Source of the DNA: a virus
Lineage: Duplodnaviria; Caudoviricetes
Length of the DNA: 64,000 bases
IMG/VR virus record: IMGVR_UViG_3300028591_000127
Coordinates: 45,072-109,071 of that record
Direction: 5' to 3' (one strand)
Position 1 is the stretch's first letter. Every line of letters starts with the position of its first letter. Shown here piece after piece: positions 28,374 to 60,937 of the stretch. The notes under the pieces were generated by a model. It did no database searches. It had not been told where the DNA came from and saw nothing but the letters and a program-made list of their open reading frames with translations. A program made the position numbers and the translations under genes.

Positions 28374-29972
28374 TTAGTCGTTTGTTAAGAAAGTACAGAA
28401 CCCTTGATTCTTAATGATACTTTTCACTAGCTTATAATATTGCTGGAAAGTAAGAGGCCCTGATAACTTCATTACATTAATTCCTCTTTCGTAGTTAGTA
28501 TTGGTTCTTATAAATTTAGAAATCAATCTAACTTCGTCGTCAATATCGTACTGGCAATAATCTAAACTTCTGGGAATATAGATTCTAACATTAGTAGGAT
28601 CTGCTGTAATGCTAATTACATCCTTCGGAATTTTACTACTAATCTCATAATCTTCCTCCCCATCTCGGTCTAGCTTATCGACAATCATATCTATCATATT
28701 ATTGTTTGAAAATGTTGAATTTCTTAAGGCAGGTTTATCATAGAGATTTGGCTTCAAACCAAGATCCATAAATCTTTTTAGGATCTCATCGAAAGCATTA
28801 ACATTCTTTAAGGGGTAAGTATAGACAATAACCTCACCAGTATCACTTCGGTTGATTTCATCTGAGTACTTTCCATACCATCCCTTATCAATCTTAGTAG
28901 CCTCTTTCTTTGTGGAGGTTACAATAAATAAACCAGAGTTCATAGAGAAATTAACCGGATTCTTATCAGAACCAACAGTGAAGTGGAAGGATTCGACATA
29001 ACGGTTCTTACTTAATGCAGCCTCAAGAAATCTATTACTATACTCAGACTTGGCCATACCAGGAGCAGCAAGAGACTCACGCTCCCTATTAGTCAACTCA
29101 TTAATACCTTGAAGAATAGAATCGATCATAATAGCGGGGAGTGCAGAAGGTCCTCTACCAACAAGACGAATGACCTTAGCTCCGCTAGTACCCAACATCT
29201 TAATTAAATCATACTTACTGAAAGCCGATACAGAAAACTCTTTCTCCTCTTCCTCAGTAACTTCATCCATCTTATTTGTTGCCTCAAGAATTCTTCCCTC
29301 AATAGAAGCGAAGTGGTCTAAGAGATTAATAGGTGTATTAAGAACCTCACTAAGCTCTACAATAAACGAACAAATAACCTGGGTGTTAGTGAATGTTATA
29401 TTAACGGCATAAGAATTTAGCTTGAGATTAACTGCTCTCGCTGTATATTCCATACCATAATACTTCTTACAATAATAATCTAGAGTCTTAGAGGTTTTAT
29501 CTAATTCCTCTCGTGTCATTCCAAAAGTATATAGTGTTAGTTGACCTCTATGAACGGCAACAGTAACTTTATACTTCGTTACTTCTCTGTCATTAGTGGA
29601 GAATTTTTCATCAAACTTAGCCCTATGTTTAAGAGAATCTCCAATAATCACACCCCCCAGGTTATACATGCTAAACTGTCTTCTAATACCTCTGTCTATG
29701 TCTTGGAATTTAGCCGATGACATAGGCTTGTGAATATAGTTCAAGAATAATTTAGTAGCAATACCTGTTAAAATGCCAGCACCTGCACCCTTAAAAGCAC
29801 CCTCAATTATAGAGGAATCTTTCATATAGTGGCCAGCTACTGCACCAATTAAGGATCCTGCAACAGTGGTTTTTGATACTGTCTCAAGTGTTCCTGGAAG
29901 GCTAACTACGTCCTTTGGGCCTGTATAATGTCCCTCAGGAATAGTAAAATCTTTTCTTTTAAATTTAATCAT
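28374..29972 (-). CDS. Leader-bearing multi-domain glycine-zipper protein
   Basis: MIKFKRKDFT leader, GxxxG helices, internal KEFS and STFS motifs. Confidence 0.7.
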   Translation of the reverse strand: MIKFKRKDFTIPEGHYTGPKDVVSLPGTLETVSKTTVAGSLIGAVAGHYMKDSSIIEGAFKGAGAGILTGIATKLFLNYIHKPMSSAKFQDIDRGIRRQFSMYNLGGVIIGDSLKHRAKFDEKFSTNDREVTKYKVTVAVHRGQLTLYTFGMTREELDKTSKTLDYYCKKYYGMEYTARAVNLKLNSYAVNITFTNTQVICSFIVELSEVLNTPINLLDHFASIEGRILEATNKMDEVTEEEEKEFSVSAFSKYDLIKMLGTSGAKVIRLVGRGPSALPAIMIDSILQGINELTNRERESLAAPGMAKSEYSNRFLEAALSKNRYVESFHFTVGSDKNPVNFSMNSGLFIVTSTKKEATKIDKGWYGKYSDEINRSDTGEVIVYTYPLKNVNAFDEILKRFMDLGLKPNLYDKPALRNSTFSNNNMIDMIVDKLDRDGEEDYEISSKIPKDVISITADPTNVRIYIPRSLDYCQYDIDDEVRLISKFIRTNTNYERGINVMKLSGPLTFQQYYKLVKSIIKNQGFCTFLTND

Positions 29973-30799
29973 ATTGTCGCAGGGATAAATCCAGTTGATG
30001 TCATTAAGGGACTTTGAGTCATATTCTGAAGGCCTTTCTTAATTGATCTTTGTCTTATATCTCTACTAAACCCAGAACCAGCATACATCTCCCCGGCTTT
30101 CTTAGTAGCACTTTGATAAGGTCTTCTAACAAGCTTATTTAAGAGGCTAGCTGTTTCAGCAGGTCTTTGTAAATACATCTCCGCAGCAATACCCGCCTTA
30201 CCAACCATCAATTCTGGGTGTTGAAGAACAAAGAACGGATGAAAACTAGCAGCTTGGGCAACTCCAGATACTGGGTGTTGCGCTACGTAATGGATAACAT
30301 TATCAGCTACTTCACCTGTATTTTCATAAGCCATTCTAGCCCCCTCTTTACCTTTCTGTACAGCCTCTTCAGCTACTTTTCTTGATTTAGCTCTCGGAAC
30401 TCTAACCACTCTCCTATTGGCGGTTGTTGGAACTCCTGCTAAGATCTCAGCCTGGTTTCTTATTCCTTGGCCCACATTTTGAACAACCTCACTAGCTCTC
30501 GATCCAGTAATTAGGTGATGGCCTTCCTCTATAGCTTTGGTGACCGGATTACGCACAATATCTGAGGTTACTTCCCTAATTGTCCTAGAAGGAATTCTTT
30601 GAGGTCTAAAAGACCTTTGAGCAATAGGATTAGTAGGATGACCAAGTGTTGAGAGAATAGAATCACCAACTTTTAAACCAGCTTGATTAACTTGGGTCAT
30701 TACCTGGTCTGCTCCACTAACTAAGCCTCTTAATGCTCCCCTTGCTTTAACTAAGGATCTTTCTTTTATTCCAAAGTCTTTTTCTTTAAATTTAACCAT
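29969..30799 (-). CDS. Leader-bearing basic protein
   Basis: Start revised to MVKFKEKDFG at 30799. Confidence 0.65.
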   Translation of the reverse strand: MVKFKEKDFGIKERSLVKARGALRGLVSGADQVMTQVNQAGLKVGDSILSTLGHPTNPIAQRSFRPQRIPSRTIREVTSDIVRNPVTKAIEEGHHLITGSRASEVVQNVGQGIRNQAEILAGVPTTANRRVVRVPRAKSRKVAEEAVQKGKEGARMAYENTGEVADNVIHYVAQHPVSGVAQAASFHPFFVLQHPELMVGKAGIAAEMYLQRPAETASLLNKLVRRPYQSATKKAGEMYAGSGFSRDIRQRSIKKGLQNMTQSPLMTSTGFIPATI

Positions 30800-30803
30800 A
30801 GCT

Positions 30804-31680: not shown

Positions 31681-34239
31681 TTAGACCTGACCGTCAAACT
31701 CCATACCCATATCAAAGGCATTACTATAAACCTTGATATACTTAAGAGCACGGTTGAATCTGATTTCTACCAGTACATTAACGCGATTTGCTCTAGCATC
31801 CTCGTCTGTGTTGTTGGTTTCGTCAATAGTAATACGATAAGCATTGATGGTATAAGTCATCGGGATAATCGTACTTTTAAACCAATAATCAATAACGCTA
31901 GTCATATCAGCCCATACAGCAGGACCAATATGGCGACCAATAAACTGACGAAGCAGCAAAGGGATAGCTTTATTGATACGAATCCACAAACGGCTGTTAG
32001 CTTCATCACTCATAATGTCCTTGCTGGTATACTTGGTGTAGTTATCATTCCAAGTCCAAGCACTAATCTGAGTATCCCACTTAACAGTATTGATTTTCTT
32101 AGTAAGAAGCAACTGACGAGTCTTCTTATTAAACTCAGCAACCGGACGCTGGAACTGTGCAAGACCGTTAGTCTGACCCAGCATAGGAGCAAACTCACGA
32201 CCAAGACGACGGTTACGACCTACGGTCTCCCAGTACATAGTGCCAGGAGATACATAGTACTTCCAACCTACGGTACCAGTATCAATATCCCAAGGAGCAG
32301 ATGCATACAACTTATAAGAATCCTGACTTACTCTAGCAATTGAATTACCAATAGCCAGATAGTTAGTACTATTAATTGTTGAAATGGGGTAGAAGTAATT
32401 CTCATTGTTAGCAAGATTAGCCATATAAGACTGAACCATTGGGCTAGTACAACCAAGGTCAGCAAGACCCTCGGTGGTATAGACTTCATCAAGAGCAATC
32501 TGATCGAAGGCCTTGAGAATATCAGTATCAGTGACGTTCAGGATAGCACAGTCAGTGGGATCAATGCTCAAGTTAACAAAGATCTCTTCAGGATCCAGGT
32601 CAGATACGGTCATACCATCAACATACTCATAGTAAGTACCCTCGACGTCCTCACCAATCTTAGCGATTTCATTGGCAGCGGGAGCAATAATATGAGCATT
32701 CAGGAATTGCAGAGACTTCTCAACGTACTTTACGCTAAGAGAACCAGTATTCTCAATCTCAGTCCAAGCAGCGGTCTCAGTTTCATCAACTGTAGTGACA
32801 ATATACTTGTAGTACTTAGCAGTCTCTTTACCAACAACAGCTACATTACCAACGCTGGGAGTAGCAATATTAGCAAGATCAGCCTTAGACTCCAAAGGAT
32901 TGCTGTCATCATCAGTCGTAATAGCATTCTCCTTCTGAGTTGAAGTAAGATCCTCAGCCTTTCTAAGAGCCCAACCTCTAGTTTGAGTGCTGGGAAGATA
33001 ACCATAATAACCAAGACCAAGCTCAGTCAGGTCATCAGGCATCGTCAGACTGATCATGTTCAGAAGATTGTTGACTTCTGTAACAGTCATGTCACCACGA
33101 CCCAGGATATTACCAACATTGAAGTAAACAGTCTCACCATTTACACTAGGATCCAGAATAGCAATCTCATAGAAGTCACGATACAGATTATCCTCTGAGG
33201 GAGTAGCAGTACCGCCGTTTGTGAAAGTATCCAGAACAGAGCTGAGAACTGTGTAGGGAGACTGACCACCTGCATAAGAGTCAGGAGCACTGAGTTCCTT
33301 TGTTACTACTGCATCATGGTTGAAACGACGAATTCTTGCGCGAAGAGGCGTAGAAGAATTGTAAGAGTTAGAAGCATAGAATGCAGGAGCATCAAATCCA
33401 GAGAACGTTGTGCCATTGAGGTCCAAAATTTTCTGAGAAGGATTAGCTGGGGTCCAGTCAGGCTCACAAGTAACTACATAAGCCAGTCCATTTGGACATC
33501 TAGAATCAGTAGTATCAATCAGGTTAGCACCAATATACAGCTCCTCGAATACAACAGAGACAGCATTCTTATACTCGCTCTTAGTCGTAATCAACTGGGA
33601 ACCTCTCTCATCTGAATAGAATTTATAGTCGGGGCTGAAGAACATAGAAGACTCATTAAGAGTATCAACAAGAGTCTCCAGATCATCAACATAGACGTCA
33701 TATTGAGCACCAGCATCGGTAGTTCTATTACCAAGAATACCAATTCCACTAATATTAATGCTCCAACCATCAGAAGAGTGCTCTGCGCTATCCTTGTCCA
33801 TATCAATAACGATCTTTACAGGGGCAGAGATCTTCTTAAGAAGCTGACCATCTCTCAACAGATAAGTATTGGTTTTGTCAGTCTTGGACAGTGCCTTAGA
33901 GAAGAAAATATCCTTAGCCTTTGAAGCTCTAACACAAAGGAGAGTATTAGAGCCAGCCAGACGGTAAGCATTCAGCCACATCGTCTCAGCCATATCACTA
34001 ATATCACCATCGTACAGACCATTCAGAGACTTGATATAATCCTTCGTGAGATCCTTAGAAGAATAAGTAGAAAGGAACTCAGACTGACTAGAAATCAAGG
34101 TAGGAATACCGGGACCTGCATCACTAATGAGAACACAACCAATAATCAGGCTCTCACCAGCAGTAGGATTGACCGGCATCGACTTAATTTTTTCTTGAAC
34201 TTTTATATACGGTTCAAGAGTTTCGGTCCATTGTGCCAT
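31681..34239 (-). CDS. Tail sheath protein
   Basis: 852 aa; C-terminal RLWIRI...YRITIDETNNT...NRVNVLVEIRFNRALKYIKV is the classic sheath C-domain; strongly biased codons. Confidence 0.9.
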   Translation of the reverse strand: MAQWTETLEPYIKVQEKIKSMPVNPTAGESLIIGCVLISDAGPGIPTLISSQSEFLSTYSSKDLTKDYIKSLNGLYDGDISDMAETMWLNAYRLAGSNTLLCVRASKAKDIFFSKALSKTDKTNTYLLRDGQLLKKISAPVKIVIDMDKDSAEHSSDGWSINISGIGILGNRTTDAGAQYDVYVDDLETLVDTLNESSMFFSPDYKFYSDERGSQLITTKSEYKNAVSVVFEELYIGANLIDTTDSRCPNGLAYVVTCEPDWTPANPSQKILDLNGTTFSGFDAPAFYASNSYNSSTPLRARIRRFNHDAVVTKELSAPDSYAGGQSPYTVLSSVLDTFTNGGTATPSEDNLYRDFYEIAILDPSVNGETVYFNVGNILGRGDMTVTEVNNLLNMISLTMPDDLTELGLGYYGYLPSTQTRGWALRKAEDLTSTQKENAITTDDDSNPLESKADLANIATPSVGNVAVVGKETAKYYKYIVTTVDETETAAWTEIENTGSLSVKYVEKSLQFLNAHIIAPAANEIAKIGEDVEGTYYEYVDGMTVSDLDPEEIFVNLSIDPTDCAILNVTDTDILKAFDQIALDEVYTTEGLADLGCTSPMVQSYMANLANNENYFYPISTINSTNYLAIGNSIARVSQDSYKLYASAPWDIDTGTVGWKYYVSPGTMYWETVGRNRRLGREFAPMLGQTNGLAQFQRPVAEFNKKTRQLLLTKKINTVKWDTQISAWTWNDNYTKYTSKDIMSDEANSRLWIRINKAIPLLLRQFIGRHIGPAVWADMTSVIDYWFKSTIIPMTYTINAYRITIDETNNTDEDARANRVNVLVEIRFNRALKYIKVYSNAFDMGMEFDGQV

Positions 34240-34272: not shown

Positions 34273-35019
34273 TTATCCAACTTCAACAAGATAAACAGGG
34301 TAACCCTCTTTGAGGAATCCAGTGGCAATTTCCACAATTGTTCTCCTATTTTGATTTGCGTTGGAAATAGTGGATATGTTAATATCGTTATATTTGTTAG
34401 ATGCGTTGTTCGATCTGATTTGATATTTACCAGACAAGCCCTTCAAGATCCTATCAGTCAATCTTTGTAGCTTCGGATTTTTAATAGTATTCACAAGCAT
34501 ATTGAAGTCGGCACCATTTTTAGTGACAACAATACAGACAGTACATTTCATTATGTTAGCCCTCTTAGGATCTCTAGTATAGTCAAGATCTTCGACATAA
34601 CCAGCATTAGAGAGATCACTAATAACGCCTTTCATTAAGCGATTATCTGCATCAGACTGTGAAATCTTTTTATTAATATCTTTAACAGCACCAACAAGAG
34701 CACCAAGAGCAGCACCAATTATAGTACTAGTCCCAACAAAGGCCATATTTTGAAGAGCAGAAGTTTTATATGTAGTCTCTTGTTCTTCTTTCCTATCCTT
34801 TCCAGAACCTGAAATCTTTGTTCTTGTTTCGGTGTTAGCCAGATCATTATATTTTTCAATACCCTTCTTAAAGAAGGCGGGACCAGATTTGGGAACTTTC
34901 AGATTAGATGGCAGATTTAATCCACCAGCACCAAGAGTTCCCAATGTTGCACCAACAGTGGCCCCCTTTAACGCACTAGACGCAATATAACTACTAAAAC
35001 TTTTATACTTGAACTTCAT
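34273..35019 (-). CDS. Leader-bearing glycine-zipper protein
   Basis: MKFKYKSFS; GATVGATLGTLG and GAALGALVG helices. Confidence 0.7.
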   Translation of the reverse strand: MKFKYKSFSSYIASSALKGATVGATLGTLGAGGLNLPSNLKVPKSGPAFFKKGIEKYNDLANTETRTKISGSGKDRKEEQETTYKTSALQNMAFVGTSTIIGAALGALVGAVKDINKKISQSDADNRLMKGVISDLSNAGYVEDLDYTRDPKRANIMKCTVCIVVTKNGADFNMLVNTIKNPKLQRLTDRILKGLSGKYQIRSNNASNKYNDINISTISNANQNRRTIVEIATGFLKEGYPVYLVEVG

Positions 35020-35473: not shown

Positions 35474-35809
35474 TTAGTTAAAAAGCCGACTTATTAATAA
35501 TAGTCTCTTCTTTTGTTGTTTATTTTTTAGAGAATCTCTTTCAAGTTTTCTAAATTTAACTCGATCTTCAAGATCCTCTCTTCTTAATCGTTGTTCCTCG
35601 ATCAAAGAATCATTAACTTCTGCCATAGCGTCAGTTAATTTACCCATTGCGTCGAGTTGTTTCTTCTGATATTCAGTCGCAGCCTTATGTCTCTTAGAAT
35701 TAACTGCCAAATTAGTAGCACTAACACCAAGAGTAGCTAAGGAAATTGGGATAGTTGGGTGCTTCTTTAAGACGTCAGCTGCTGAGAATCGTTTAATCCG
35801 TATAATCAT
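35474..35809 (-). CDS. Leader-bearing protein (hydrophobic helix plus coiled coil)
   Basis: MIIRIKRFS leader. Confidence 0.7.
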   Translation of the reverse strand: MIIRIKRFSAADVLKKHPTIPISLATLGVSATNLAVNSKRHKAATEYQKKQLDAMGKLTDAMAEVNDSLIEEQRLRREDLEDRVKFRKLERDSLKNKQQKKRLLLISRLFN

Positions 35810-36257
35810 CTGTTCTTGAAGTTTTATCGATAAATGATCTTCTGAGTCTTCGTCTAGCCCCAGTCTTTGCCGTTTCTAAACTCTCATTATACTTTTTATT
35901 TATCTTAGCTTGTTTTCTACCAACAAGATAAGCTATCCCGGAACCTAACCCAGCACCAATAAGGGACCCTCTTAAAGCTCCTCGTCCAAACCCTCTTCCT
36001 GCTGATTTAAGTCTAGATATTTTTGTTTCGCCTTTTTTAAGATAAGCACCTTTCTTAATAGCCCCTTTAATAAGACCACGAAGAGATTCATAACCTCCAA
36101 TACCTAGTGCACCAAGAGTTCCAGAGAGGGCAATATCACCACCCCTGACTTCTGTTCTGGGCTCTTCGGCAAGAACATCAGAATCTTTCATTTCCATCAG
36201 TTCACTAAGATCATCACTCTCAGTGAACCATTTTCTTCTTAGTTTAATGCTTGCCAT
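35793..36257 (-). CDS. Leader-bearing glycine-zipper protein (paralog of 46529-47017)
   Basis: MASIKLRRKWFT; MKDSDVLAE motif. Confidence 0.7.
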   Translation of the reverse strand: MASIKLRRKWFTESDDLSELMEMKDSDVLAEEPRTEVRGGDIALSGTLGALGIGGYESLRGLIKGAIKKGAYLKKGETKISRLKSAGRGFGRGALRGSLIGAGLGSGIAYLVGRKQAKINKKYNESLETAKTGARRRLRRSFIDKTSRTDDYTD

Positions 36258-36259: not shown

Positions 36260-37264
36260 TTATTGAACTTGCCCAGCTTTTGCGTTTTCATATTGATAGG
36301 CGTTCTTATCTACTGTATTAAAGACTTTCTTCGCAGTATTTTCAGCACCAGACCAAGCAAGAGTACTAACACCCATCAAAGGAACAGCAGTAATAAGGTT
36401 TGCCGCTGTCTTATTCTCGGCTAAATATTTACCACGACCAGCTAACCAGGTACTACCGTTTTCCTCACCAAATTTCTGTAATCCTTGAGCGAACTTATTA
36501 ACTCTCTCCGTTCCACCAAGTCCTAATGAAGCGAGGTTATTAACGGTTCCTGAAATCGTTTGCCCAGGAGTTTTGAAAATTTGCCATTCTTTTGGTTTGG
36601 TAGCCATCTTAGCAAATTTACCTATACCAGACAGAATGGAGTAGGATCTCTGCTCTCCACCAGTAGCGGCCATCTGATCCTTTAAATTATTCTTCTCGGC
36701 ATAGTAACCAGCAAGAGTTGGAGCAGCAAAGAGAGTCGGCATAACTGCATTACCTGCTAATTTGCCCCCCACTTTCTTTAGGACAGATTCTCCACCTTGT
36801 TTTCCCGCTGCAGTAGCTGAAACAGGGACGTCGGCATACTGTTGTTCCTTCATTATCAAGTTGCCTGCCTCATCAAACTGCATACCACTCTTTTTCATAT
36901 CGTGTTGGATGAATTTATTGACCCCATAACCTGCGGCAGCCAATGAACCACCCATAATAGCAGTATTTGTAATCTCCTTACCAAAAGCTGATTTACCTGC
37001 CTGAAATAGTGTCTTTCCTGCCGCTAAGAGACCTCCACTATAAGACCTTTGACTGAAGTTCGTGGCGGCGGCAGGATGAGCATTGATAGCTTTATTGATC
37101 TTCTCAAGTCTTTTGTTTTGTTCCCTCATAAGTTCTTGTGTTTTTTCATCTCTTTCTTCCTGTTCAGAAGCATTTACAGAGGAATTAATCAAATCCGCCC
37201 CAGTTACCACCGTTCCAGCCACGCCAATAGCTGGCCAGAAGAAGTTTTTTTGTTTGAACTTCAT
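36260..37264 (-). CDS. Leader-bearing polyprotein-like membrane protein
   Basis: MKFKQKNFF; internal QRSYS, QQYA and QRSYS motifs separate hydrophobic modules. Confidence 0.7.
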   Translation of the reverse strand: MKFKQKNFFWPAIGVAGTVVTGADLINSSVNASEQEERDEKTQELMREQNKRLEKINKAINAHPAAATNFSQRSYSGGLLAAGKTLFQAGKSAFGKEITNTAIMGGSLAAAGYGVNKFIQHDMKKSGMQFDEAGNLIMKEQQYADVPVSATAAGKQGGESVLKKVGGKLAGNAVMPTLFAAPTLAGYYAEKNNLKDQMAATGGEQRSYSILSGIGKFAKMATKPKEWQIFKTPGQTISGTVNNLASLGLGGTERVNKFAQGLQKFGEENGSTWLAGRGKYLAENKTAANLITAVPLMGVSTLAWSGAENTAKKVFNTVDKNAYQYENAKAGQVQ

Positions 37265-48921: not shown

Positions 48922-48924
48922 AGA

Positions 48925-50663: not shown

Positions 50664-50669
50664 CTTTGA

Positions 50670-51519: not shown

Positions 51520-51523
51520 AGTC

Positions 51524-51892: not shown

Positions 51893-52188
51893 TTCTTCTC
51901 TTTTTTATTCTTATAGTGTTTATAGGCCCCAAGGGAGGTTAATCCAATACCAGCAGTCGTAAGACCTATGGCAGCTTTCTTTTGATTTTTTAAGAGCTCC
52001 GATACAGGGATCCCCTTCTCATGAGCGTAAATCTGAAGTGCTTTAATTTGTTTACTAAGCTCCCCCTTCTTGAGATCTCTTGAAAGTTTCCATTCGGCTG
52101 CTCCAAGGCCAGTACCTAATGCTGTTGAAATTCCACCACCAATCAAGGCGTCCTTACTATAATCATAATTCTTCTTGTTATCTTCCAT
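51889..52188 (-). CDS. Glycine-zipper protein
   Basis: Two Gly-rich hydrophobic helices and a Lys-rich tail. Confidence 0.65.
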   Translation of the reverse strand: MEDNKKNYDYSKDALIGGGISTALGTGLGAAEWKLSRDLKKGELSKQIKALQIYAHEKGIPVSELLKNQKKAAIGLTTAGIGLTSLGAYKHYKNKKEKK

Positions 52189-52195
52189 AATACTA

Positions 52196-53881
52196 TTACC
52201 GATCTTCTATATTATTGAATACAGCCGGATCTATGCCTTGTTGTTCGGCCATTACTGACTGTTTAGCCTGGAGATAAGCAATATACTTTCTCTTGGTCTC
52301 ATCATTAATCATACTCTCAGTATCAGGATCAATGTCTTTGATGAGATTCTGAATATAATTAATAAAAGCTTCAGTATCTATTAAAGGTGCAGAGTTTTCA
52401 AGAATCTGCAAAGAACTAGATAAGATGTTAGTTATACCTCCCATCAAACCATTAATAGACTCACTTTGGTTAATCTGATTATTATATTCAACACTAGTCT
52501 TCTCTGATACGTGAAGCTTAATCAAAGAGGGATCAATCTTCTCTCCATATATCATTTCATAAACTGAACAGACAAGATCCTTAACTGATGTCTTAATGCC
52601 CGACATAAATCCGCTAACCCTACTATTAGCTCTCTCTGATTGTTGTAGAATCGCCCACTTTGAACCTGATGTCGAATCTAAGATTGTTGAAGGAATACCA
52701 AGAGGACTAAGGACATTGTTCTTACACATGTCCAAATTCTGCATTATCTCAAATAATTTATCTGACAATTTATCAAGAGGCAATAAGTTATTCTTATTAC
52801 CAAGAGTAGCATTATAGTCAGGAACAAATTTAGCACTCTGAGATAAGGTATTTTCAATAAAACTAACAACATCAAATTGGCTAGTTAAGAAAGACGCTAG
52901 CTCATTTGTATTATTGGCAATCTTAGTCGTTCTAGCACAAAGCTCTGTAGCAGTTTCCTTAGGAGTAGATTTATCGAATTGAAGAAGGAAAATCTGAACA
53001 CTACTTAAGTCGCGAAGGCTAATAAGAGACACAAGTAACTCTTTTATAATTAGCTCCTTAACTTTCAGAATGAGGGAGTAAAACAGAGGTTCACCCGTAC
53101 TGTAGGCTTCGGTTCTTAAAATTTTATCTAAATTATCATCCTTAAGCTTCTTACCAAATGAGGGCTGAACAGTTTTATCTTTCTTTGCTTTGTAAGTCTC
53201 ATTAAGATCGTTAACCAGGCGAAGGTTAATACTTCCAAGCACGAAAGCACTATTATGAGGAATTTCGTATATCTTTCCATCCTCACCTCTGGTCAAAAAC
53301 GAGTCCTCCGTTTCACCATCCTTATTCCTTTTCTTCTTAGTGATCACTGATATAGGATCATATAGCTCCTCAAACCTCAACTTCAAATGCCCTAACTCAT
53401 CACGAGTCTTTAAAATCATAGAAGTATATTGACCATAGAAAACTACATCCTTAACGTGGTCCCTTATATAGTCTAAGATATTAAGATCCTTAGTTAAGAC
53501 CTCATTAATCTTTTCAGTTCTTGATTCGTCCGTATTACCCTCTGGATCGAGGATCGTTACTATCTGTTGTCCAGAGTCCTCCAGAAAATTCACTATATAA
53601 TCAGCAAAAAAGTTGGTTGCTAATTTACAAACATCAATGAGCTGATATCCATGTAATTCATCGATCCTTGAGTAATATGCTGACATTAAATTGCTGGGAG
53701 AAGCATTGCCTAACAAAGGAGATTCCCTTTGAGAGCTATTCCACTTACCGCCAGAGCCAATCTGAGTAAATCCACTTCTACCGCCCCGATAAATATTACT
53801 TCTTAACGGTACTCTGGAGTTTATATTGCCGGCAAATCCAAAAATCTTCTGAAAAAATCCATTATTGTCCTCTTTCTTCAT
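52196..53881 (-). CDS. Portal protein
   Basis: 561 aa between terminase and protease; KDVVFYGQY and LSPLGIP portal-like segments. Confidence 0.7.
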   Translation of the reverse strand: MKKEDNNGFFQKIFGFAGNINSRVPLRSNIYRGGRSGFTQIGSGGKWNSSQRESPLLGNASPSNLMSAYYSRIDELHGYQLIDVCKLATNFFADYIVNFLEDSGQQIVTILDPEGNTDESRTEKINEVLTKDLNILDYIRDHVKDVVFYGQYTSMILKTRDELGHLKLRFEELYDPISVITKKKRNKDGETEDSFLTRGEDGKIYEIPHNSAFVLGSINLRLVNDLNETYKAKKDKTVQPSFGKKLKDDNLDKILRTEAYSTGEPLFYSLILKVKELIIKELLVSLISLRDLSSVQIFLLQFDKSTPKETATELCARTTKIANNTNELASFLTSQFDVVSFIENTLSQSAKFVPDYNATLGNKNNLLPLDKLSDKLFEIMQNLDMCKNNVLSPLGIPSTILDSTSGSKWAILQQSERANSRVSGFMSGIKTSVKDLVCSVYEMIYGEKIDPSLIKLHVSEKTSVEYNNQINQSESINGLMGGITNILSSSLQILENSAPLIDTEAFINYIQNLIKDIDPDTESMINDETKRKYIAYLQAKQSVMAEQQGIDPAVFNNIEDR

Positions 53882-53900
53882 ATCTTAATTCCATTTAAAA

Positions 53901-53954
53901 TTAGCTCTCATACTTAGATCGAACCATAGAACCTTGAATGTTCAGTATGAGAGT
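53901..53954. repeat. Structured intergenic repeat, type C, copy 2
   Basis: Matches 46447-46500; immediately upstream of the portal start. Confidence 0.85.
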
Positions 53955-53963
53955 TTATGATAT

Positions 53964-54841
53964 TTAATTCTCCTTGTCCTTACTCTTTTCTATTTTGTTG
54001 GCAGCAGCTTTACCTAGTCCTCGACCTACCAGAGTCAATGAAGGATTGATCAAACTACCTGTTACGTAAGTTCCTCCTGTTTTAAGATACTGATTTCTCA
54101 TTTGGGATAATAGTTTTTTGTCAGCACCCGCCTCTTTCAGAAGTTGTAAACCCTTTTTAGACGCAGCGGCCTCACTCAGTATCATCGGTGCCGAAATAGC
54201 AGCAGCGGCAACAGTGGGTCCATATTTAGATAATTTGCTCTCCTTTTCCCCTTTACGCTCCTTTTTTACTGAGTTATAACCACTAGCAAATCCAGCAGAT
54301 AAACTTGCAAGAGATGGAGCATTCTTTCCGGGAAGAGCAATTTTCTGGTAGGTAGGATTTAAGTAAATACTGTGAGCAGCTTTACCTATTTTACTAGCAC
54401 CCTCACGACCAAAGGTGTGCCTACTGTGACCAACCTCATGAGCAAAATTCGAATTAGTATTTTTAGAAATACAATCCTTCACTCCCTCCTTTTCCAGTGC
54501 TTCAACTAAATCTCGTAACTCCAGATTCTCTGGATGTTTCAGGCTTTCCCTCTTAATCTCTTTTAATCTAATATAAGAATCAGTAAATCCAGGAACTACT
54601 TTAGTACCTCCTTTTTCTACCTCTTCTTGAAGTTTCTTATTAATTCTCTTGAGTTGATCTATTTTATCCTTTGAAATAGGCTCATCACTCATAGCGGAAT
54701 TATAGAGCCCAGTATTAGCTGCTATAGCACCCAAAGTAAGTGTACTACCTATAGCGGCTAAACGACTTCCTGGCCTGGACTGATCATTATCATTCCCCCC
54801 CCTGTACTCTTACTATAGTACTTTTGTCTTAGTATGATCAT
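53964..54841 (-). pseudogene. Leader-bearing HExxH zinc-metallopeptidase-like membrane protein, frameshifted at a G8 tract
   Basis: ATG 54841 gives MIILRQKYYSKSTGG; the body (FAHEVGH...SEAAAS) is in another frame; G9 at 54795-54802 would join them. Confidence 0.7.
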
Positions 54842-55359
54842 AGTTTAGCAAATTTTCTAATTTCAGGTATTATATAGTTACTGAGCTCCTCTATTGTTGG
54901 AACATGTTTTCCTGGAATATTTATTAAACTATTTTTCCCATATTTTCTAACAAATATAGGTTCAGTTACTGATCTTAACTTATCTTCCATCGAAATAAAT
55001 CCAAGAACATTCGTAGCTTGGTCAGGAAGATTTTCAAGTTCTTTGAATCCTAAACTATACTCTGGAAATTTAGTTTTTATACCCTCTGAAATACCAAAAC
55101 CTGGATTAATTAAAACTGTTTTCTTAGATTTTATTTTAGTAGCATATACACCTCCCATACTAAGCCCAATTACAAGATCCCAATTTACTTGTTTTAATTT
55201 CTGTAAATCTTTTAAACCTAATCTTGGATCACTATGAACTACGGGAATTTGAATATTAGGGATTTCTTTTTTAAAAAATTCGGATATTTCAAGTTTTCCT
55301 AATTCATATGCCATAAAACCATTTAAGAAACAAATTTTTTTATGCCGCAATATCTTCAT
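54838..55359 (-). CDS. Alpha/beta-hydrolase esterase (YqiA/UPF0227-like)
   Basis: FLNGF oxyanion loop, GLSMGG nucleophile elbow, LINP, Asp and GKH His; degenerate leader MKILRHKK. Confidence 0.8.
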   Translation of the reverse strand: MKILRHKKICFLNGFMAYELGKLEISEFFKKEIPNIQIPVVHSDPRLGLKDLQKLKQVNWDLVIGLSMGGVYATKIKSKKTVLINPGFGISEGIKTKFPEYSLGFKELENLPDQATNVLGFISMEDKLRSVTEPIFVRKYGKNSLINIPGKHVPTIEELSNYIIPEIRKFAKL

Positions 55360-55554
55360 AACCTCATTAATCTATTCCAGAAATCACCTGAAACACTAAA
55401 TTTGTTTAACTACTCTAAATCCTAACTTTTTATATATATTTGTTAGTATCTAAAGGCTAAGGAATATTCATCCTCTGTCATAACTACACTATAGAAAACC
55501 TCAGAAGAGGTCTCTGAAAATAATCTGTCTTCTATATACAAAATTTTATATTTT

Positions 55555-56112
55555 TTATAGGAATTCTAGAATTTCTCCTTTTTCTGCAAGATCGTGAATC
55601 TTTTGTTTAAATTTGTTGTCACGGATTTTCTTAAGTTCCTGATATTTGGCATTACCTAATCTAGCCTCATTAGGTAATGCCCAGCCTCGGTGGTCATAGT
55701 CTTTCTGCGTTAATTTTGTAAGAGGACCATTATTTTTACCATAGCTCTGTCTTTTTCCACCAAATATGCTTTTTCTTGAGGCAGATCCAATTTGATTACG
55801 AGCTTTTTCATTTATTCCTTCATTAACCAAATCTTTAGCAGACTGGTTCTGCTTCAAAACTCCAACATCCCAGGTATGATTAATTCTTGGATCGTAATGT
55901 CGAGCCTTTCCTCGTTGAAGTTTCCGGCCTGCCGACCGGATCTGGTCATTAGTAAATCCAAAATTAGTATTTTCTTTAAGAGCTTTCATTCCAATTTCTA
56001 GATCTTTCTTAGCTCTAAGAGCCTTCTGTGCTTTTGAATTAAATTCCCGTTGCTCTACTATTTGATTATTACAGTCTTCAGTAGAAAAAGACTTTTTGCG
56101 TAGTATGATCAT
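55555..56112 (-). CDS. Leader-bearing basic protein
   Basis: MIILRKKSFS...QREFNSKAQK. Confidence 0.7.
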   Translation of the reverse strand: MIILRKKSFSTEDCNNQIVEQREFNSKAQKALRAKKDLEIGMKALKENTNFGFTNDQIRSAGRKLQRGKARHYDPRINHTWDVGVLKQNQSAKDLVNEGINEKARNQIGSASRKSIFGGKRQSYGKNNGPLTKLTQKDYDHRGWALPNEARLGNAKYQELKKIRDNKFKQKIHDLAEKGEILEFL

Positions 56113-56131
56113 AGTATTATTCTTCTTAATT

Positions 56132-56188
56132 AATTAGTCTTCCCGGTCTAATCAAATAGATAGAACTTAATAATGTTCTCCGGGAAGT
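56132..56188. repeat. Structured intergenic repeat, type A, copy 2
   Basis: Matches 49381-49437. Confidence 0.9.
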
Positions 56189-56196
56189 ATAGGGTA

Positions 56197-56724
56197 TTAA
56201 TCGTTGCTCTTCTTACGCTTCTTATGACTCTTGACCTTATGCACGCCATAACCAGTAGCGAGACCTGTAACACCCAAGCCAGTAGTTACGCCAGCAGCGA
56301 TCTTCTTATTTCCCCTCAGCAGCTCACCAGCCTTAAGCAGATTCTTCTCAACAAGACCGGCTTCCTTACTACCAGCAGCCTTTACCGTCTTACCGGCACC
56401 CACAAGAGCTTCTAAGCTACTCTTAGCTTCTTCCTGAGCGGCTAGCCCATTAGCCTTAAGTCGCTTATTTCTAATGACCTCACCAAGCTTACCTGCTCCA
56501 TACATACCAGCTGCGCCGAGACCTGCAGTGCCTAAACCAGCACCTGCGCCCTTAGCGGCAGCAATAGCGGCAGCAAGCTTTGAGTCTTCATCTTCGTCGT
56601 CCTCATTATCACTGAACAACATTTCCAGGTAATCCTCTTCACTAATTACCTCATTTGTAGAATACAGTCTCTCCTCGCCACTCTCATCAATAGCAGAGAA
56701 ATATACATTACGTTTAACCAACAT
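56197..56724 (-). CDS. Extended-leader glycine-zipper protein
   Basis: Start revised to MLVKRNVYFS at 56724; first 47 aa identical to 57416-57973. Confidence 0.75.
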   Translation of the reverse strand: MLVKRNVYFSAIDESGEERLYSTNEVISEEDYLEMLFSDNEDDEDEDSKLAAAIAAAKGAGAGLGTAGLGAAGMYGAGKLGEVIRNKRLKANGLAAQEEAKSSLEALVGAGKTVKAAGSKEAGLVEKNLLKAGELLRGNKKIAAGVTTGLGVTGLATGYGVHKVKSHKKRKKSND

Positions 56725-56779
56725 AGTTTTCTTATTAGTTTTATTGTTTTTTTTAGTAGTAAGGGTACTAATTCCTCCC

Positions 56780-57307
56780 TTACTTATAATATTTATGCAG
56801 ATGCTTCTTATAATCTTCATCTTCTATAGATTTCAAGATATCAGAATATCTCTGCAATCCTCGACGATCAAACTTCTTACTTTTCGCGATCTCCTCTGAC
56901 TCGTTTTCACCGATTTTCTTACCAAGTTTATAACCAAGATAAGAGCTAGCACCTACACCGGCAGCCACACCTGCTGCACCAATAGCAGCCGGAACAGCCT
57001 TACCCTCGCTTGCCTTAATAGCTGCATCAGCGACCCAGGGAGATGCTAGTAAAGCCCCAAGTCCCGCACCAGTCAGAGCACCACTTCTCTTGTGCGCTTT
57101 TTTAAGGGGCTCATAATCATCATTATCAATCGCCTTAATCGTAGCTCTATTTAAAGAGCTAGAACCACCAGCTAAAATTCTATCTGTACCGACTTTATCA
57201 TCGAAGTAAGAAATGGTATCATCATCCAATTTCTTTCTACGCTTGCTCTTCTTACTGAAAAGCTTCGTCTGATCCTCCGAATACTCTTTATGTCTCAATA
57301 TAATCAT
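56780..57307 (-). CDS. Leader-bearing glycine-zipper protein
   Basis: MIILRHKEYSEDQTKLFS. Confidence 0.75.
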   Translation of the reverse strand: MIILRHKEYSEDQTKLFSKKSKRRKKLDDDTISYFDDKVGTDRILAGGSSSLNRATIKAIDNDDYEPLKKAHKRSGALTGAGLGALLASPWVADAAIKASEGKAVPAAIGAAGVAAGVGASSYLGYKLGKKIGENESEEIAKSKKFDRRGLQRYSDILKSIEDEDYKKHLHKYYK

Positions 57308-57332
57308 ACCTATTAGTTTAGTTTGGTATTAG

Positions 57333-57387
57333 AGTTCCCATAGTTGTTTTGGTACATAAAGACATGTTTCATCTCGACTATGGGATT
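57333..57387. repeat. Structured intergenic repeat, type B, copy 1
   Basis: About 90% identical to 59486-59540; stem tcccatagttg/cRactatggga. Confidence 0.85.
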
Positions 57388-57415
57388 ATAGTTTTCTGAC
57401 TAAGTTAGGATAGGA

Positions 57416-57973
57416 TCAATCCTCCTTCTTCTTCTCCTTCTTCTTTGCTAATTTACCAGCAGCATAAAGTCCTGCGCCGACTGCAGTTACAGCGAGGCCT
57501 CCCTTTGCATTTTTGACGGCACTGTCCTTAACTACTTTCGAGGCGCGTCTAGCATAAGTATCTATATCCTGTAATGCAGCTTTCTTGTGAATCTTTTTAA
57601 GAGCATCAAGATAATCCTGAGCCTTCTTAATATCTTTATCCGTAAGTTTTCTTCCTAACTTATTTTTCGCAATCACTTTCAATGCACCAGGTAGTTTCGA
57701 AATAGCTTCCTTATATGGCCGAACTGACGCTTTTGTACCGGGAACCAAAACAGCCCCAGCCGTACCTGCACCACCTGCAACCATGGCTCCTTTACCAACC
57801 TTTTCTGCTAAATTCTTATCGGACTTCTTTTCATCTTCGTCTTCGTCGTCCTCATTATCACTGAACAACATTTCCAGGTAATCCTCTTCACTAATTACCT
57901 CATTTGTAGAATACAGTCTCTCCTCGCCACTCTCATCAATAGCAGAGAAATATACATTACGTTTAACCAACAT
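57416..57973 (-). CDS. Extended-leader glycine-zipper protein
   Basis: MLVKRNVYFSAIDESGEERLYS...MLFS; two GxxxG helices; Lys-rich tail. Confidence 0.75.
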   Translation of the reverse strand: MLVKRNVYFSAIDESGEERLYSTNEVISEEDYLEMLFSDNEDDEDEDEKKSDKNLAEKVGKGAMVAGGAGTAGAVLVPGTKASVRPYKEAISKLPGALKVIAKNKLGRKLTDKDIKKAQDYLDALKKIHKKAALQDIDTYARRASKVVKDSAVKNAKGGLAVTAVGAGLYAAGKLAKKKEKKKED

Positions 57974-58025
57974 AGTTTTCTTATTAGTTTTATTGTTTTA
58001 AGTAATAAGGGTATTAATTTCTTCC

Positions 58026-58190
58026 TTACTTATAATATTTATGCAGATGCTTCAAAAACTTATTTCTTAGACTCTTTCTGCTACATCAATCTCATCAGCC
58101 TCTGTCTATCCAACCTATCATAAGTCTTTCAGAAGACCTTTAACTGCAGTAATTCCTCCAGCGCCAGCACGTCTTAGAAATCAACACGCT
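58026..58190 (-). pseudogene. Degraded remnant of a cargo gene
   Basis: Its 3' end is identical to the KHLHKYYK* end of 56780-57307; upstream are broken-frame fragments (RAGAGGITAVKG, ADEIDVAE). Confidence 0.45.
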
Positions 58191-58193
58191 ATT

Positions 58194-59456
58194 CTACATT
58201 TTAGTCTTAGTTATACAGTTTATACGTTGATGGAGTTTATAGCAGATATTATAAATTAGATTAGCTAGAGCATTCACAGAAGGAATAGTTAATTGAACTA
58301 TATAGCCACCTTTAACCTTTTCAGAGATGTAAGTAGCCTTTCTGTTATCTTTTACTACATACTCAAACTCTTTACTTAGTTCGTCAAGTGTTTTATTCCC
58401 TATGGAGTCGTAAATTATAAAAATTGCTACTCCATCTCTAACTGATAGAACTATATTGAACCCCTTAGGATCTTGGTCTAATCCTATATATCGACTAACT
58501 AGGTTTTTGCCTCTAACATCAAGCCCTTTGTTTCTGGAATCTGATATAATATCTTCCAAATAATCAAGAACTTGATTCATATTAACCTCTTTAGCTACAC
58601 TCATTCTGTGATCTGCGCCAACTGCCTTAAACATATTTCCCAGGGCACCCATTAGGGAACCTAGTGATAGTCCAACAACAGTAGAAATACCTAGAGTTTT
58701 TAAATTAAGAGTAGAGACACCAACACTTGCGCCTACAGCACCGCCAGCAACAGCCCCGAGACCTGCGCCGGTTTTTGCTTTATTAATAAGCTCTCTTCTT
58801 AAAGAACCTTCTTTATCAGGATGACCGGATTGAATACTGAAAATTTTCTCTCGCCTTTTCTTTTTAGTTGCTTTTGCAGCACCATTAAGGGCTAGCGCAG
58901 AAACTCCAGTCGCTAGGGCGATCCCGCCAGCAATTTTACCTTTCTTGAGGTTTTTAGAGGCAGTGTTCAGAGCTTTTGTTGATTTAACAGAATCTACTAT
59001 TCTCTTATTAGTTTGAATATTTTTCTTCTCTCTGGTAATTGCCCCCTTTATTCGGTTGTAGTTCTCAGTACTTATTGTTTTGTCTCTATTACTTAAGACA
59101 AATTCCTCAATATTCTTAAGCTTTTCCTTAGACCCGGCAATCTCCTGCTTGGCTGCTTCTTCAACACCCTCCAGCACATTTCTTCTGGTTTCTAAATCTT
59201 TTAAAGATTTCTTAGATCCTCGAAGAACCTTACCACCAACTTTTTTCAGGGCCTTGAGTTTACCAAGTTTTGATTTCTCGGCACTAATTCTATTGTATAC
59301 TTCTTTTCCAGCCTGACCAGTTTTATAAGCCCCATAACCAAGAGCCCCTAAAGAAATAATGCCCTCTGCTTTTGCTGCACCGTCTAAAAGATTTTCCCTG
59401 TCGTATCTAGCCTCATCAATTTTCGATGCGAAGGCCTTGTTTCTTAATATAATCAT
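58194..59456 (-). CDS. Leader-bearing two-module glycine-zipper protein
   Basis: Start revised to MIILRNKAFA at 59456; internal KIFS starts a module resembling the N-terminal domain of 28374-29972. Confidence 0.75.
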   Translation of the reverse strand: MIILRNKAFASKIDEARYDRENLLDGAAKAEGIISLGALGYGAYKTGQAGKEVYNRISAEKSKLGKLKALKKVGGKVLRGSKKSLKDLETRRNVLEGVEEAAKQEIAGSKEKLKNIEEFVLSNRDKTISTENYNRIKGAITREKKNIQTNKRIVDSVKSTKALNTASKNLKKGKIAGGIALATGVSALALNGAAKATKKKRREKIFSIQSGHPDKEGSLRRELINKAKTGAGLGAVAGGAVGASVGVSTLNLKTLGISTVVGLSLGSLMGALGNMFKAVGADHRMSVAKEVNMNQVLDYLEDIISDSRNKGLDVRGKNLVSRYIGLDQDPKGFNIVLSVRDGVAIFIIYDSIGNKTLDELSKEFEYVVKDNRKATYISEKVKGGYIVQLTIPSVNALANLIYNICYKLHQRINCITKTKM

Positions 59457-59485
59457 ATTAGTGTAGAATAATAACCGCGTTTGAC

Positions 59486-59540
59486 AGTTCCCATAGTTGC
59501 TTTGGTGCATAGAGACATATTTCATCTCAACTATGGGATT
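59486..59540. repeat. Structured intergenic repeat, type B, copy 2
   Basis: Matches 57333-57387. Confidence 0.85.
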
Positions 59541-59546
59541 TATATT

Positions 59547-60438
59547 TTATAATTTCTTAAGTTCAGCTTTCCAATCCTTTGCTAGCTGAATTAGGGCAGG
59601 ATTTTCGATATCCTCTAAATCCCGATCAACCCACTCAATCAAGATTTCCCCTAATGAGGTGAACGTTCCTTCTATTGGAAATCCTCCTTGAGGTCCCCAA
59701 CCAAACGGCTCACTTTTAGCCTGTGGATACCAACAAACTACAGTATCATCAGCTCGTTCAGGGTCGGTTATTAGACCAATTTCGTGTAAAGATGTATCTC
59801 CTCTACGATTCAGCTGAAGATCTTCCTGTATCCACATTTCTGGGTAACGAGCTTGGTCAATGGGTCTAACTATATTGGTTAAAGAAGCCCAACAGTCCGA
59901 ATTATCTTTCAGGAATTTAACTAGGTGAGATAAGATAAATTTCTTTTGAAGTTCTATATAATTCCAAAGGTCTTTCGGAAATTGTATGCCATACTTCTTT
60001 TCTAACTTCTTGTAATCCTGGATAGATCCAGTATATAAATCAGTAAGATACTTTTGAGGATCTTTAAGTGCTAGGTTCTTCAGTTTCTCTGCTGCTTCAT
60101 ATTGTTTCTTGAGGAATTGATTTCGTTTATCAATACTCTTCTTAGAAGTTGTATTCCAAGCAGTTTTTCCTCCAAGATAAGCAGATAAAACCGCCCCTCC
60201 TAAAGCACCATACTTGGCAGATCCAAAAAATTGCACCAACCATTGAACCACCTAAGGCCCCTAATATAGCACCTAGGGCACCAAAAGCACTGGCATCTTT
60301 TAGTCTACGTCCAACAGGAACATAAGCTACAGGTTTAAATGAATAAGTTTTATCTCTTAGTATGATCAATTTGTATTCATCCTCTAACTCTCTACGACTT
60401 TTCTTATTAGAGAACTCCTTATTTCTTAGAATTATCAT
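59547..60438 (-). pseudogene. Leader-bearing glycine-zipper protein with SMI1/KNR4(SUKH)-like C-domain, frameshifted at a T6 tract
   Basis: ORFs 60142-60438 and 59547-60251 join as ...VGAIF-GSAKYGALGG if the A6 run at 60225-60230 is A5; the C-part has YKKLEKKYGIQFPKDLWNYI. Confidence 0.65.
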
Positions 60439-60937
60439 ATCTTCTTTCTAATCTAGCTCTTCTCATCTCGTCCGCTATTCTTTGTTGGGCCTGAAGTTGA
60501 AGAGCTTGAATTGCTCTATCCTTCTCATCCTGACGAATTCTACGAACTTCAGCACGATCACTAGGAGAGCTAGATACATAAAGGCCTCTCTTGTCAGCCT
60601 CTCTCTTTATTGCTTCCTCAATATCTCTATCCTTCTTTCTATTTGCGGACCCTCTGACAGCATAGTATCCCCCTGCAGCGCCTAAACCAGCGCCTATAGC
60701 AGTACCAGCCAAAGATTTCTTCGTAGCAACATTACCAACCATTGCACCTAATCCTGCACCAGCAAGACCCGCACCAAATTTAGTATTAAAAGCCGTGGCA
60801 TCCGCTACCTGTTTGTCTCTCTCCAAGTCACCTTGAAGTTCTTGAAGATATTGGGCGTCTAGCGGAGTTAACTTTTTCTTAATAGCCTTCCGCTTCTTCT
60901 TCTTTTCGCTATATAGTACGTTTTTTAGTATAATCAT
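60419..60937 (-). CDS. Leader-bearing glycine-zipper protein
   Basis: MIILKNVLYS; GAGLAGAGLGAMVG and GTAIGAGLGAAGG helices. Confidence 0.75.
   Translation of the reverse strand: MIILKNVLYSEKKKKRKAIKKKLTPLDAQYLQELQGDLERDKQVADATAFNTKFGAGLAGAGLGAMVGNVATKKSLAGTAIGAGLGAAGGYYAVRGSANRKKDRDIEEAIKREADKRGLYVSSSPSDRAEVRRIRQDEKDRAIQALQLQAQQRIADEMRRARLERRYDNSKK

Follow-up and report, generated by a model that had tools for sequence, protein, structure and literature searches.

Internal or ejection proteins with cleavable tags are already known from tailed phages, as are membrane-active glycine zippers in injected effectors. The tag motif is L/I-x-E in T4 and S/A/G-x-E in phiKZ. In T4 (the internal proteins IPI-III and Alt), SPN3US and phiKZ, the tags are cut by the prohead protease and the proteins are delivered with the DNA (PMC9026906, PMC7411985, PMC10052503). 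Among podophage ejection proteins, T7 gp16 is a soluble monomer when purified and refolds during ejection, its residues 243-410 being a putative transmembrane region that mediates liposome insertion, and P22 gp7 has been classed with membrane-inserting gp14-like proteins (PMC8954989). Outside the virion, the type VI secretion effector Tde1 requires a GxxxG motif to permeabilise the target cytoplasmic membrane (PMC10240207), and the type VII secretion toxin EsxX depolarises membranes via a glycine zipper (PMC12744356). Here we analyse a window of 64,000 nucleotides, bases 45072-109071 of a 109-kb virus contig (IMGVR_UViG_3300028591_000127), all of whose genes lie on the minus strand, and in which about 16 proteins carry about 29 glycine-zipper segments. 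We propose, with a probability of roughly 0.45, that a huge phage with a contractile tail carries these proteins inside its virion as cargo, and that their zipper hairpins would act as latent modules for membrane insertion and oligomerisation. What is new is the scale of this set, the treatment of the zipper as a shared device, and the combination of conserved GxxxG cores with an enzyme resembling phospholipid acyltransferases of the PLAAT group and a new tag in a huge contractile phage.

An earlier note, made from the sequence of the window, had listed 17 open reading frames (ORFs) with hydrophobic glycine-zipper helices, often paired, followed by basic tails and devoid of Sec signal peptides. 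All 17 ORFs are present on the minus strand with their low coordinates correct, and we refer to ORFs below by that coordinate. Using a detector for uncharged stretches free of N, Q and H, at least 13 amino acids (aa) long, with a Gly content of 20% or more, a G/A/S/T content of 50% or more and a minimum of three small-xxx-small pairs, we found one to four segments of 13-44 aa in 15 of the 17, about 12 of them with two or more, so that the pairing also held; ORFs 48925 and 53964 fail the detector. Inside the segments, Gly makes up 31% of residues, Ala 22%, Leu 13%, Val 8%, Thr 7%, Ser 6% and Ile 6%, and polar residues are nearly absent. The listed ORFs show a Gly-Gly autocorrelation over within-protein shuffles at offsets 4 (z=6.5) and 8 (z=5.2), compared with z=2.0 and 2.7 in the other 47 ORFs, a test that is partly circular because the 17 were picked for the motif. 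For this reason, the fixed detector was also run on independent sequence: the window has 14.7 segments per 10,000 aa, the rest of the contig 4.5 (polar Gly/Ser stretches of fibres), T7 1.7 and the first 100 kb of phiKZ 0.7-1.3, so that zippers are roughly tenfold denser in the window than in T7 or phiKZ. Within eight residues of the segments, in both directions, K/R is enriched (27.6%, against 17.1% in the remainder of these proteins; p=2e-6) and D/E depleted (7.8% versus 13.1%), as expected of Lys-rich flanks, and no N-terminus has a Sec-type hydrophobic core. The glycine-zipper observation is therefore confirmed, with amendments: the segments are apolar, but calling them hydrophobic overstates a mean Kyte-Doolittle value of only 0.7-1.7, and, although the flanks are further enriched, Lys-richness is largely a general trait of the proteins that bear the N-terminal leader described below.

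Relatives of this phage allowed us to follow the zippers through a clade. We collected 79 IMG/VR loci whose capsid protein is 60-78% identical to that of the window, many of them on contigs of 350-400 kb; orthologues were counted among these 79, and the zipper census covers the 68 full-length relatives' loci, of 21 kb each. IMG metagenomes 3300045988 and 3300035283 are among the sources of relatives. Zipper genes 39841, 37282, 36260, 35793 and 34273, together with the family of ORF 46529, have orthologues in 64-78 of the 79 loci; in about 78 relatives they form a syntenic core lying between the genes for capsid and sheath. Per 21-kb locus there is a median of seven zipper ORFs (range 4-11) out of 24, segment positions and pairing are kept across the clade, and two terminase-proximal loci (L081, L082) encode the same leader-plus-zipper proteins. 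The orthologues are 30-48% identical, versus 74% for the capsid protein. ORF 46529 (46529-47017) encodes a 162-aa core-family protein with the leader, a KDSDILAE motif, zippers at aa 71-86 and 100-120 and a conserved basic helix ending in YSY; leader, motif, two zippers and terminal helix are shared with its 154-aa paralogue 35793 (35793-36257), where the zippers occupy aa 42-56 and 97-113 and the basic helix is C-terminal. In an alignment of 22 sequences of the 46529 family, G78 and G105 never vary and G82 and G109 are kept in at least 90%, which gives each helix a GxxxG pair around variable residues; in 22 sequences of the 49446 family, G283, G327, G331 and G335 are invariant. From these alignments, GxxxG spacing appears to be under purifying selection while the intervening residues drift. 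A profile search with the 46529 family returned 118 representatives among 1.8 billion clustered proteins and no outside relatives, which marks the family as clade-restricted.

The zipper proteins appear to be linked to the head by their N-termini. About 25 ORFs begin with variants of MIILRxKxFS, and in most cargo ORFs residues 4-10 contain the sequence [KR]-x-[FY]-S. Zippers occur in 13 of the 25 leader ORFs and in 7 of the 39 others (p=0.006 with a crude regular expression), an association that strengthens after hand-fixing of obvious errors of that expression. Over the window, [KR]-x-[FY]-S is about fourfold over-represented (66 sites against 15.5 expected), with 12 copies in a scaffold-like protein (41955-44375; 806 aa, very acidic, net charge -159, its function predicted), five and four in the two ORFs after the scaffold gene, and two (KTFS and KNFS) within the first 60 aa of the major capsid protein (40487-41929), which is assigned through weak tblastn matches to annotated phage capsid proteins and its 79 relatives. 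The shared N-terminal tag thus matches sites in both scaffold and capsid protein, the pattern that marks capsid-targeted internal proteins. In the 22 homologues of ORF 49446, both the N-terminal leader and an internal site (RNYS, with an invariant S227) are conserved, and the internal site falls precisely at the junction of the catalytic domain with the C-terminal zipper domain. The leader region of 46529 is modelled by AlphaFold2 (AF2) as a β-hairpin. These observations fit a tag for capsid targeting and maturation cleavage, and we consider it probable, judging from the sequences, that the tagged proteins are packaged in the virion.

The phage leader resembles the N-terminal extension of ribosomal protein L27 that is removed by the protease Prp, which suggests that the leader could mimic that extension. 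Prp is reportedly used by Staphylococcus phage 80-alpha. The Prp family (PF04327) is not encoded on the phage contigs tested, including a complete 353-kb relative; two PF04327 matches that we considered as phage Prp lie on bacterial contigs of the same metagenome bins. Two species-representative 'genomes' in GTDB, labelled 'Mycoplasmatota' and 'Bacilli', contain relatives of 371 kb and 376 kb (L086 and L087: CASEGV010000001.1, JAGAYY01...; also L089). On bacterial contigs from the same bins there is an rplU-prp-rpmA cluster, whose L27 starts MLFKLNLQLF/ASKKG. If binning reflects the host, this provides a lead to a small-genome Bacillota-type organism with a single membrane.

One zipper protein appears to be a lipid enzyme. 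ORF 49446 (49446-50663) encodes 405 aa with the leader MKVKRFSY, zippers at aa 11-26, 46-61, 274-287 and 327-339, and a PLAAT/LRAT domain at aa 87-189. Enzymes of this type act on membrane phospholipids, normally with a hydrophobic anchor. The protein scores 66.1 bits against Pfam LRAT (PF04970; cut-off 24.3), as a family matched by all 22 homologues; H102, N175, N176, C177, E178 and F180 are invariant among the aligned sequences, giving an NCEHF motif and the His-before-Cys order of the LRAT branch. The catalytic domain is modelled by AF2 with a predicted local distance difference test (pLDDT) score of 76-92, and its eight best Foldseek matches in the PDB are all human PLAAT2, PLAAT3 or PLAAT4 (template-modelling (TM) score by target 0.59-0.79, probability 1.0), PLAAT3 being the best at 0.79. 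By domain score, residue order, modelled fold and a candidate membrane anchor adjoining the catalytic domain, 49446 is a predicted PLAAT/LRAT-type lipid-modifying enzyme lying between zippers, a putative acyltransferase or lipase; it may instead act as a peptidase, as homologues also match Amidase_6 (9 of 22) and NLPC_P60 (2 of 22). It differs from the PLAAT enzymes in its phage cargo leader and internal processing site, and in its anchors: that of PLAAT proteins is one strongly hydrophobic helix, whereas glycine zippers are the sole candidate membrane anchors of 49446, and those of its homologues match Gly-zipper_Omp (E 5e-7) and Gly-zipper_YMGG (E 3e-6). The one phage match of the LRAT domain, in Acinetobacter phage MD-2021a, was discarded, being a mislabelled bacterial contig with putA, trmA, tktA and metK. 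As a side observation, a leader-tagged 173-aa α/β-hydrolase (54838-55359) with a GLSMGG nucleophile elbow and a UPF0227 score of 21.6 bits (cut-off 21) is a second candidate packaged enzyme, kept beside the portal-sized gene in L081 and L082.

By composition, the segments resemble the glycine zippers of membrane proteins. They show the structural hallmarks of the Pfam glycine zippers, namely paired helices, a small residue at every fourth position and no internal charge. When 68 zipper proteins and orthologues were scanned against Pfam, the only recurring families were membrane Gly-zipper families (YMGG in 9, counted at E<=0.01, Omp in 5, Romo1 in 4, OmpA in 3 and Tim17 in 1), the matches to all five lying below curated thresholds. 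The likeness to PF13441 (YMGG), PF13488 (Omp), PF13436 (OmpA) and PF05433 (2TM) consists of paired GxxxGxxxG helices and similar composition; it is a compositional resemblance, and we make no claim of homology. These Pfam families are mostly outer-membrane lipoproteins, in contrast to the window proteins, which have neither lipobox nor signal peptide. The same detector finds a paired zipper (aa 189-205 and 207-229) in P22 gp7, an annotated injection protein that loses its first 20 residues by cleavage, and a single segment in T7, at aa 387-405 of gp16, inside its liposome-inserting region; there is none in P22 gp20 or gp16, or in T7 gp13-15. Podophage ejection proteins therefore share the zipper with the proteins described here, with head packaging and ejection established there and predicted for this phage. 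The podophage trio, however, holds one or two zippers in total, and this phage differs further in its contractile tail, its genome of 312 kb or more and its leader motif. PHROGs and tblastn searches revealed no homology to T7 gp14/15/16 or P22 gp7/20/16, the only match being to a 'pilot protein for DNA ejection' at E=0.085.

The resemblance to the T4, SPN3US and phiKZ proteins lies elsewhere, in the many small basic proteins with a short N-terminal tag encoded among head-module genes (PMC9026906, PMC7411985, PMC10052503), while the tag of this phage is [KR]-x-[FY]-S and its processing and packaging are predicted. No zipper enrichment is seen in the first 100 kb of phiKZ, a stretch with many head and inner-body genes. 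The window proteins share repeated GxxxG segments with Tde1, EsxX and CdzC/D (PMC5380434), injected or secreted proteins that permeabilise or depolarise the cytoplasmic membrane of the target cell, and the type VI secretion system is in addition a contractile device related to phage tails. Those proteins differ in being antibacterial toxins with immunity proteins and non-virion, and show no homology to the window proteins, beside which no immunity-like partner is evident. A full-text literature search joining glycine zipper, bacteriophage and virion returned only unrelated work.

We therefore favour a scheme in which the proteins would be made late in infection with an N-terminal β-strand leader ending in [KR]-x-[FY]-[ST], which would direct them, along with the very acidic scaffold, into the procapsid and then be removed. 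The same motif would also cut the scaffold and separate domains, for example at S227 of the PLAAT-like protein. The zippers may be too weakly hydrophobic for capture by the host membrane-insertion machinery, and we propose that the proteins consequently stay soluble and packageable. In the capsid, K/R-rich regions would sit against the DNA. Upon tail contraction, the small helical proteins would exit through the tube, their cationic flanks would bind the anionic cytoplasmic membrane, and the hairpins would insert and pack via their conserved GxxxG faces. The outcome may be an entry conduit that they form or line, and/or the anchoring of attached domains at the entry site, notably that of the PLAAT-like phospholipid acyltransferase or lipase. 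Provided that the proteins are packaged, we consider their insertion into a membrane plausible, slightly less so than packaging itself, and the joint figure of about 0.45 given above follows from these two steps. The earlier note's description of a membrane-active payload thus gains indirect support from the leader link, the membrane-only Pfam families, the PLAAT/LRAT cargo, and P22 gp7 and T7 gp16. Nothing we found points specifically to the further roles that it named, a phiKZ-type early vesicle, superinfection exclusion or anti-defence; the vesicle link is unsupported because phiKZ shows no zipper enrichment, and no search for chimallin was made in the relatives.

Several observations weigh against membrane insertion by packaged proteins. 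Most segments stay under the standard transmembrane criterion (a Kyte-Doolittle 19-mer mean of at least 1.6), with only those of 34273, 37282, 58194 and 60142 reaching 1.6-1.9, and a high value for 39841 is an artefact of an upstream ORF extension. A simple sum of Hessa-scale values, entered by hand, is +2 to +7 kcal/mol. By comparison, a true integral membrane protein encoded within the window (48406-48666), which served as internal control, reaches 2.4-2.7 and has 86 aa, three segments, a neutral isoelectric point (pI) and no leader; the zipper proteins do not have this integral-membrane or holin-type profile. Basic charge, with a median pI of 9.7 in the listed ORFs versus 5.4 in all others, is common to all leader-bearing proteins, including about nine without zippers, and therefore need not be a membrane signal. 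All Gly-zipper matches of window proteins fall below curated cut-offs (the best, for 60419, at 17.7 bits against 28.9; the others at E 0.02-0.9) and could reflect composition alone. AF2 models the zippers of 46529 and 49446 as helix-loop-helix with low confidence (pLDDT 28-48 in N-terminal zippers), the protease candidate (45177-46424) has no match in PHROGs, Pfam or PDB sequences, and a contractile tail may dispense with a protein conduit.

The sub-threshold hydrophobicity would sit well with proteins that are packaged and remain intracapsid, their zippers knitting basic proteins into an inner core or body and their K/R parts neutralising DNA, with no membrane role. GxxxG motifs mediate helix packing in soluble proteins too, every leader protein is basic whether or not it has a zipper, and the core zipper genes are conserved like structural parts. 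Electrostatic co-assembly is also suggested by the acidic scaffold (-159) and by a 1541-aa protein of net charge about -220. Yet phiKZ shows no such enrichment in its first 100 kb, known head and inner-body genes included, the segments are almost free of polar residues, like membrane zippers, a PLAAT-type enzyme requires a lipid substrate, and the segments of P22 gp7 and T7 gp16, borne by packaged proteins, end in membranes; we thus regard a purely intracapsid role, the leading rival, as rather unlikely. Were the zipper proteins instead non-virion late membrane proteins, acting in lysis timing, as a membrane assembly platform or in superinfection exclusion, with the N-terminus as another signal, their place in a late structural operon and the presence of two true membrane proteins (48406 and 48670) among the zipper genes would be natural, and glycine-zipper toxins do act from the cytoplasmic side (PMC12744356). 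This is improbable given that they have no signal peptide or strong transmembrane segment, unlike 48406, that the leader motif saturates the scaffold-like protein and the capsid N-terminus, that the internal site is kept at a domain boundary in the 22 homologues of 49446, and that internal proteins typically have a pI near 10. Genes for exclusion, moreover, are normally early or lysogenic. Least probable is that the Gly/Ala stretches are low-complexity linkers or disorder with no specific function, picked out by the selection of the earlier reader: low pLDDT over several zippers and the fast divergence of orthologues (30-48% identity against 74% for the capsid protein) would suit this, but GxxxG pairs are invariant in two families of 22 sequences each, the glycine periodicity is significant at both offsets, beyond mere clustering, polar residues are nearly absent, and the positions and pairing of the segments are conserved across the clade.

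The candidates for packaged and membrane-inserting cargo, our preferred interpretation, are the following. At the terminase-proximal end, ORF 60419 (60419-60937) encodes 172 aa with the leader MIILKNVLYS, paired zippers at aa 54-68 and 75-94 found by the detector, and a basic C-terminal tail; its Gly-zipper_YMGG match has E=0.003, sub-threshold. ORFs 59547-60251 (the 3' half) and 60142-60438 (the 5' half, with leader and first zipper) are one frameshift-split gene (59547-60438) encoding a duplicated leader, then an uninterrupted double zipper (about 40 aa) and, at the C-terminus, a globular domain of about 200 aa. The split is caused by an extra T (+1 frameshift) in a T6 run at about 60231-60236, and intact 273-aa homologues (P0144-P0146, 81-89% identity) are continuous across this run; sequencing error, pseudogene formation and programmed frameshifting are possible explanations. 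Its duplicated leader reads MIILRNKEFS and then IILRDKTYSF. ORF 58194 (58194-59525; 443 aa) has the leader MIILRNKAFA at aa 24, an internal KIFS at aa 227, zippers at aa 55-67, 252-273 and 277-296, and a C-terminal domain. Smaller are 57416 (57416-57973; 185 aa), with the leader MLVKRNVYFS, an acidic pro-region, zippers at aa 62-80 and 158-173 and a Lys tail, and 56780 (56780-57307; 175 aa), with the leader MIILRHKEYS and paired zippers at aa 75-93 and 104-126. A paralogue of 57416, the 207-aa ORF 56197 (56197-56820), has its leader at aa 33, zippers at aa 91-110 and 174-193, and a Lys tail. The first 37 aa of 57416, comprising leader and acidic pro-region, match aa 33-69 of 56197 with 100% identity and the remainders differ, which points to recent module shuffling; likewise, 46529-47017 and 50670-51104 have identical first 16 aa and different remainders.

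Two listed proteins make weak cases. The 256-aa basic protein 53964 (53964-54734) has no leader, only Ala-rich apolar stretches, and an HEVGH motif; through this HExxH signature it may be a zinc metallopeptidase, with no Pfam or PHROG family supporting the assignment. The 145-aa protein 48925 (48925-49362) has the leader MAKIKVQRPKTFD and a Gly-rich C-terminal half broken by N, K and H. Between them in the order of the genes, 51889 (51889-52188) encodes 99 aa without leader but with zippers at aa 14-31 and 72-89, and its orthologues in relatives follow the portal-sized gene. On the tail-proximal side of the capsid gene, 39841 (39841-40428; 195 aa, orthologues in 64 of the 79 loci) probably starts at an internal MIIIRSRYYS and has a zipper at aa 47-64 and a Gly-rich basic region; a resemblance to microcin V was set aside as not significant (E=0.13). 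The 98-aa protein 37282 (37282-37578; 78 of 79 loci) is 22% Gly, with the leader MASIKIERKKYFS, a continuous zipper region at aa 40-83 and conserved Gly columns. ORF 36260 (36260-37264; 334 aa, 76 of 79 loci) has the leader MKFKQKNFF, a zipper at aa 101-115 and two internal RSYS sites; 34273 (34273-35019; 248 aa, 78 of 79 loci) has the leader MKFKYKSFS, zippers at aa 19-34 and 94-112 and a C-terminal domain; and 28374 (28374-29972; 532 aa) has the leader MIKFKRKDFT, a zipper pair at aa 35-47 and 58-72 and a large C-terminal domain. PHROGs gave nothing significant for any zipper protein, and ESM Atlas searches with 46529 and 28374 returned only scores below 0.9 and TM below 0.5. The detector and hydropathy also pointed to a zipper absent from the earlier list, a run at aa 577-608 of a 1745-aa tape-measure-like protein (12777-18014; phrog_9570 'tail length tape measure protein', E=3e-9).

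The surrounding genes set this cargo in a large virion. The tail sheath gene (31681-34239; phrog_23 'tail sheath', E=7e-5) indicates that the tail is contractile, and one window ORF has an identical protein also recorded on a 312-kb contig. When about 50,700 deposited phage genomes were searched at the nucleotide and protein level, nothing related to the region or to ORFs 46529 and 58194 emerged, and the same searches with the capsid protein found distant matches only and no related cultured phage. Labels for portal, protease and terminase, the last a 632-aa P-loop protein of terminase size within the window, are assigned by size, position and motifs, and the terminase-like, portal-sized and protease-candidate ORFs had no significant match in PHROGs. 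Terminase and capsid genes lie about 20 kb apart (window 41930-61276), versus about 8.7 kb in the complete 353-kb relative (comparison L081/L004); since the extra DNA consists mostly of added leader-tagged and zipper genes, the cargo set appears to have expanded in this phage. The control protein at 48406 has as its neighbour a second true membrane protein (48670, within 48406-48921; 83 aa, phrog_38535 E=1e-24), likewise without leader; the pair sits among cargo genes, in a stretch where relatives differ from one another, and could have a holin-like or accessory role. In the tail-proximal block, the 1541-aa protein (23305-27930; pI 4.3), whose Pfam Apolipoprotein match is weak, below cut-off and coiled-coil-like, may be a polyanionic counterpart of the basic cargo. 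A 198-bp inverted repeat of 97% identity lies at both contig ends (window 63803-64000 and contig bases 4-201); it is guanine-cytosine-rich compared with its surroundings, matches no Rfam family, and may be a repeated element where the assembly broke.

How DNA of giant contractile phages passes the cytoplasmic membrane, and what co-packed proteins contribute, is poorly understood. Our analysis offers a testable set: a tag that would predict which proteins are packaged, a GxxxG hairpin with cationic flanks that would predict the role of about half of them, and one lipid enzyme. A bolder version, which we consider unlikely, is that a coordinated battery of at least a dozen zipper proteins is injected by a widespread clade of 350-400-kb gut and rumen phages together with lipid enzymes (the PLAAT-like protein and the leader-tagged α/β-hydrolase) and builds a membrane structure at the entry site; that this structure might be a multi-protein pore, a remodelled lipid patch or an early membrane compartment is just as speculative. 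If true, such a phage-built structure would represent engineering of the host membrane by virion cargo, undescribed for tailed phages. Since the same module occurs in P22 gp7 and T7 gp16, weakly hydrophobic zippers may be a general solution for proteins that have to be soluble in the capsid and membrane-active after ejection, and zipper modules could serve as parts for protein delivery or membrane anchoring. The clade is frequent in human-gut and rumen metagenomes, which makes the finding relevant to real ecosystems.

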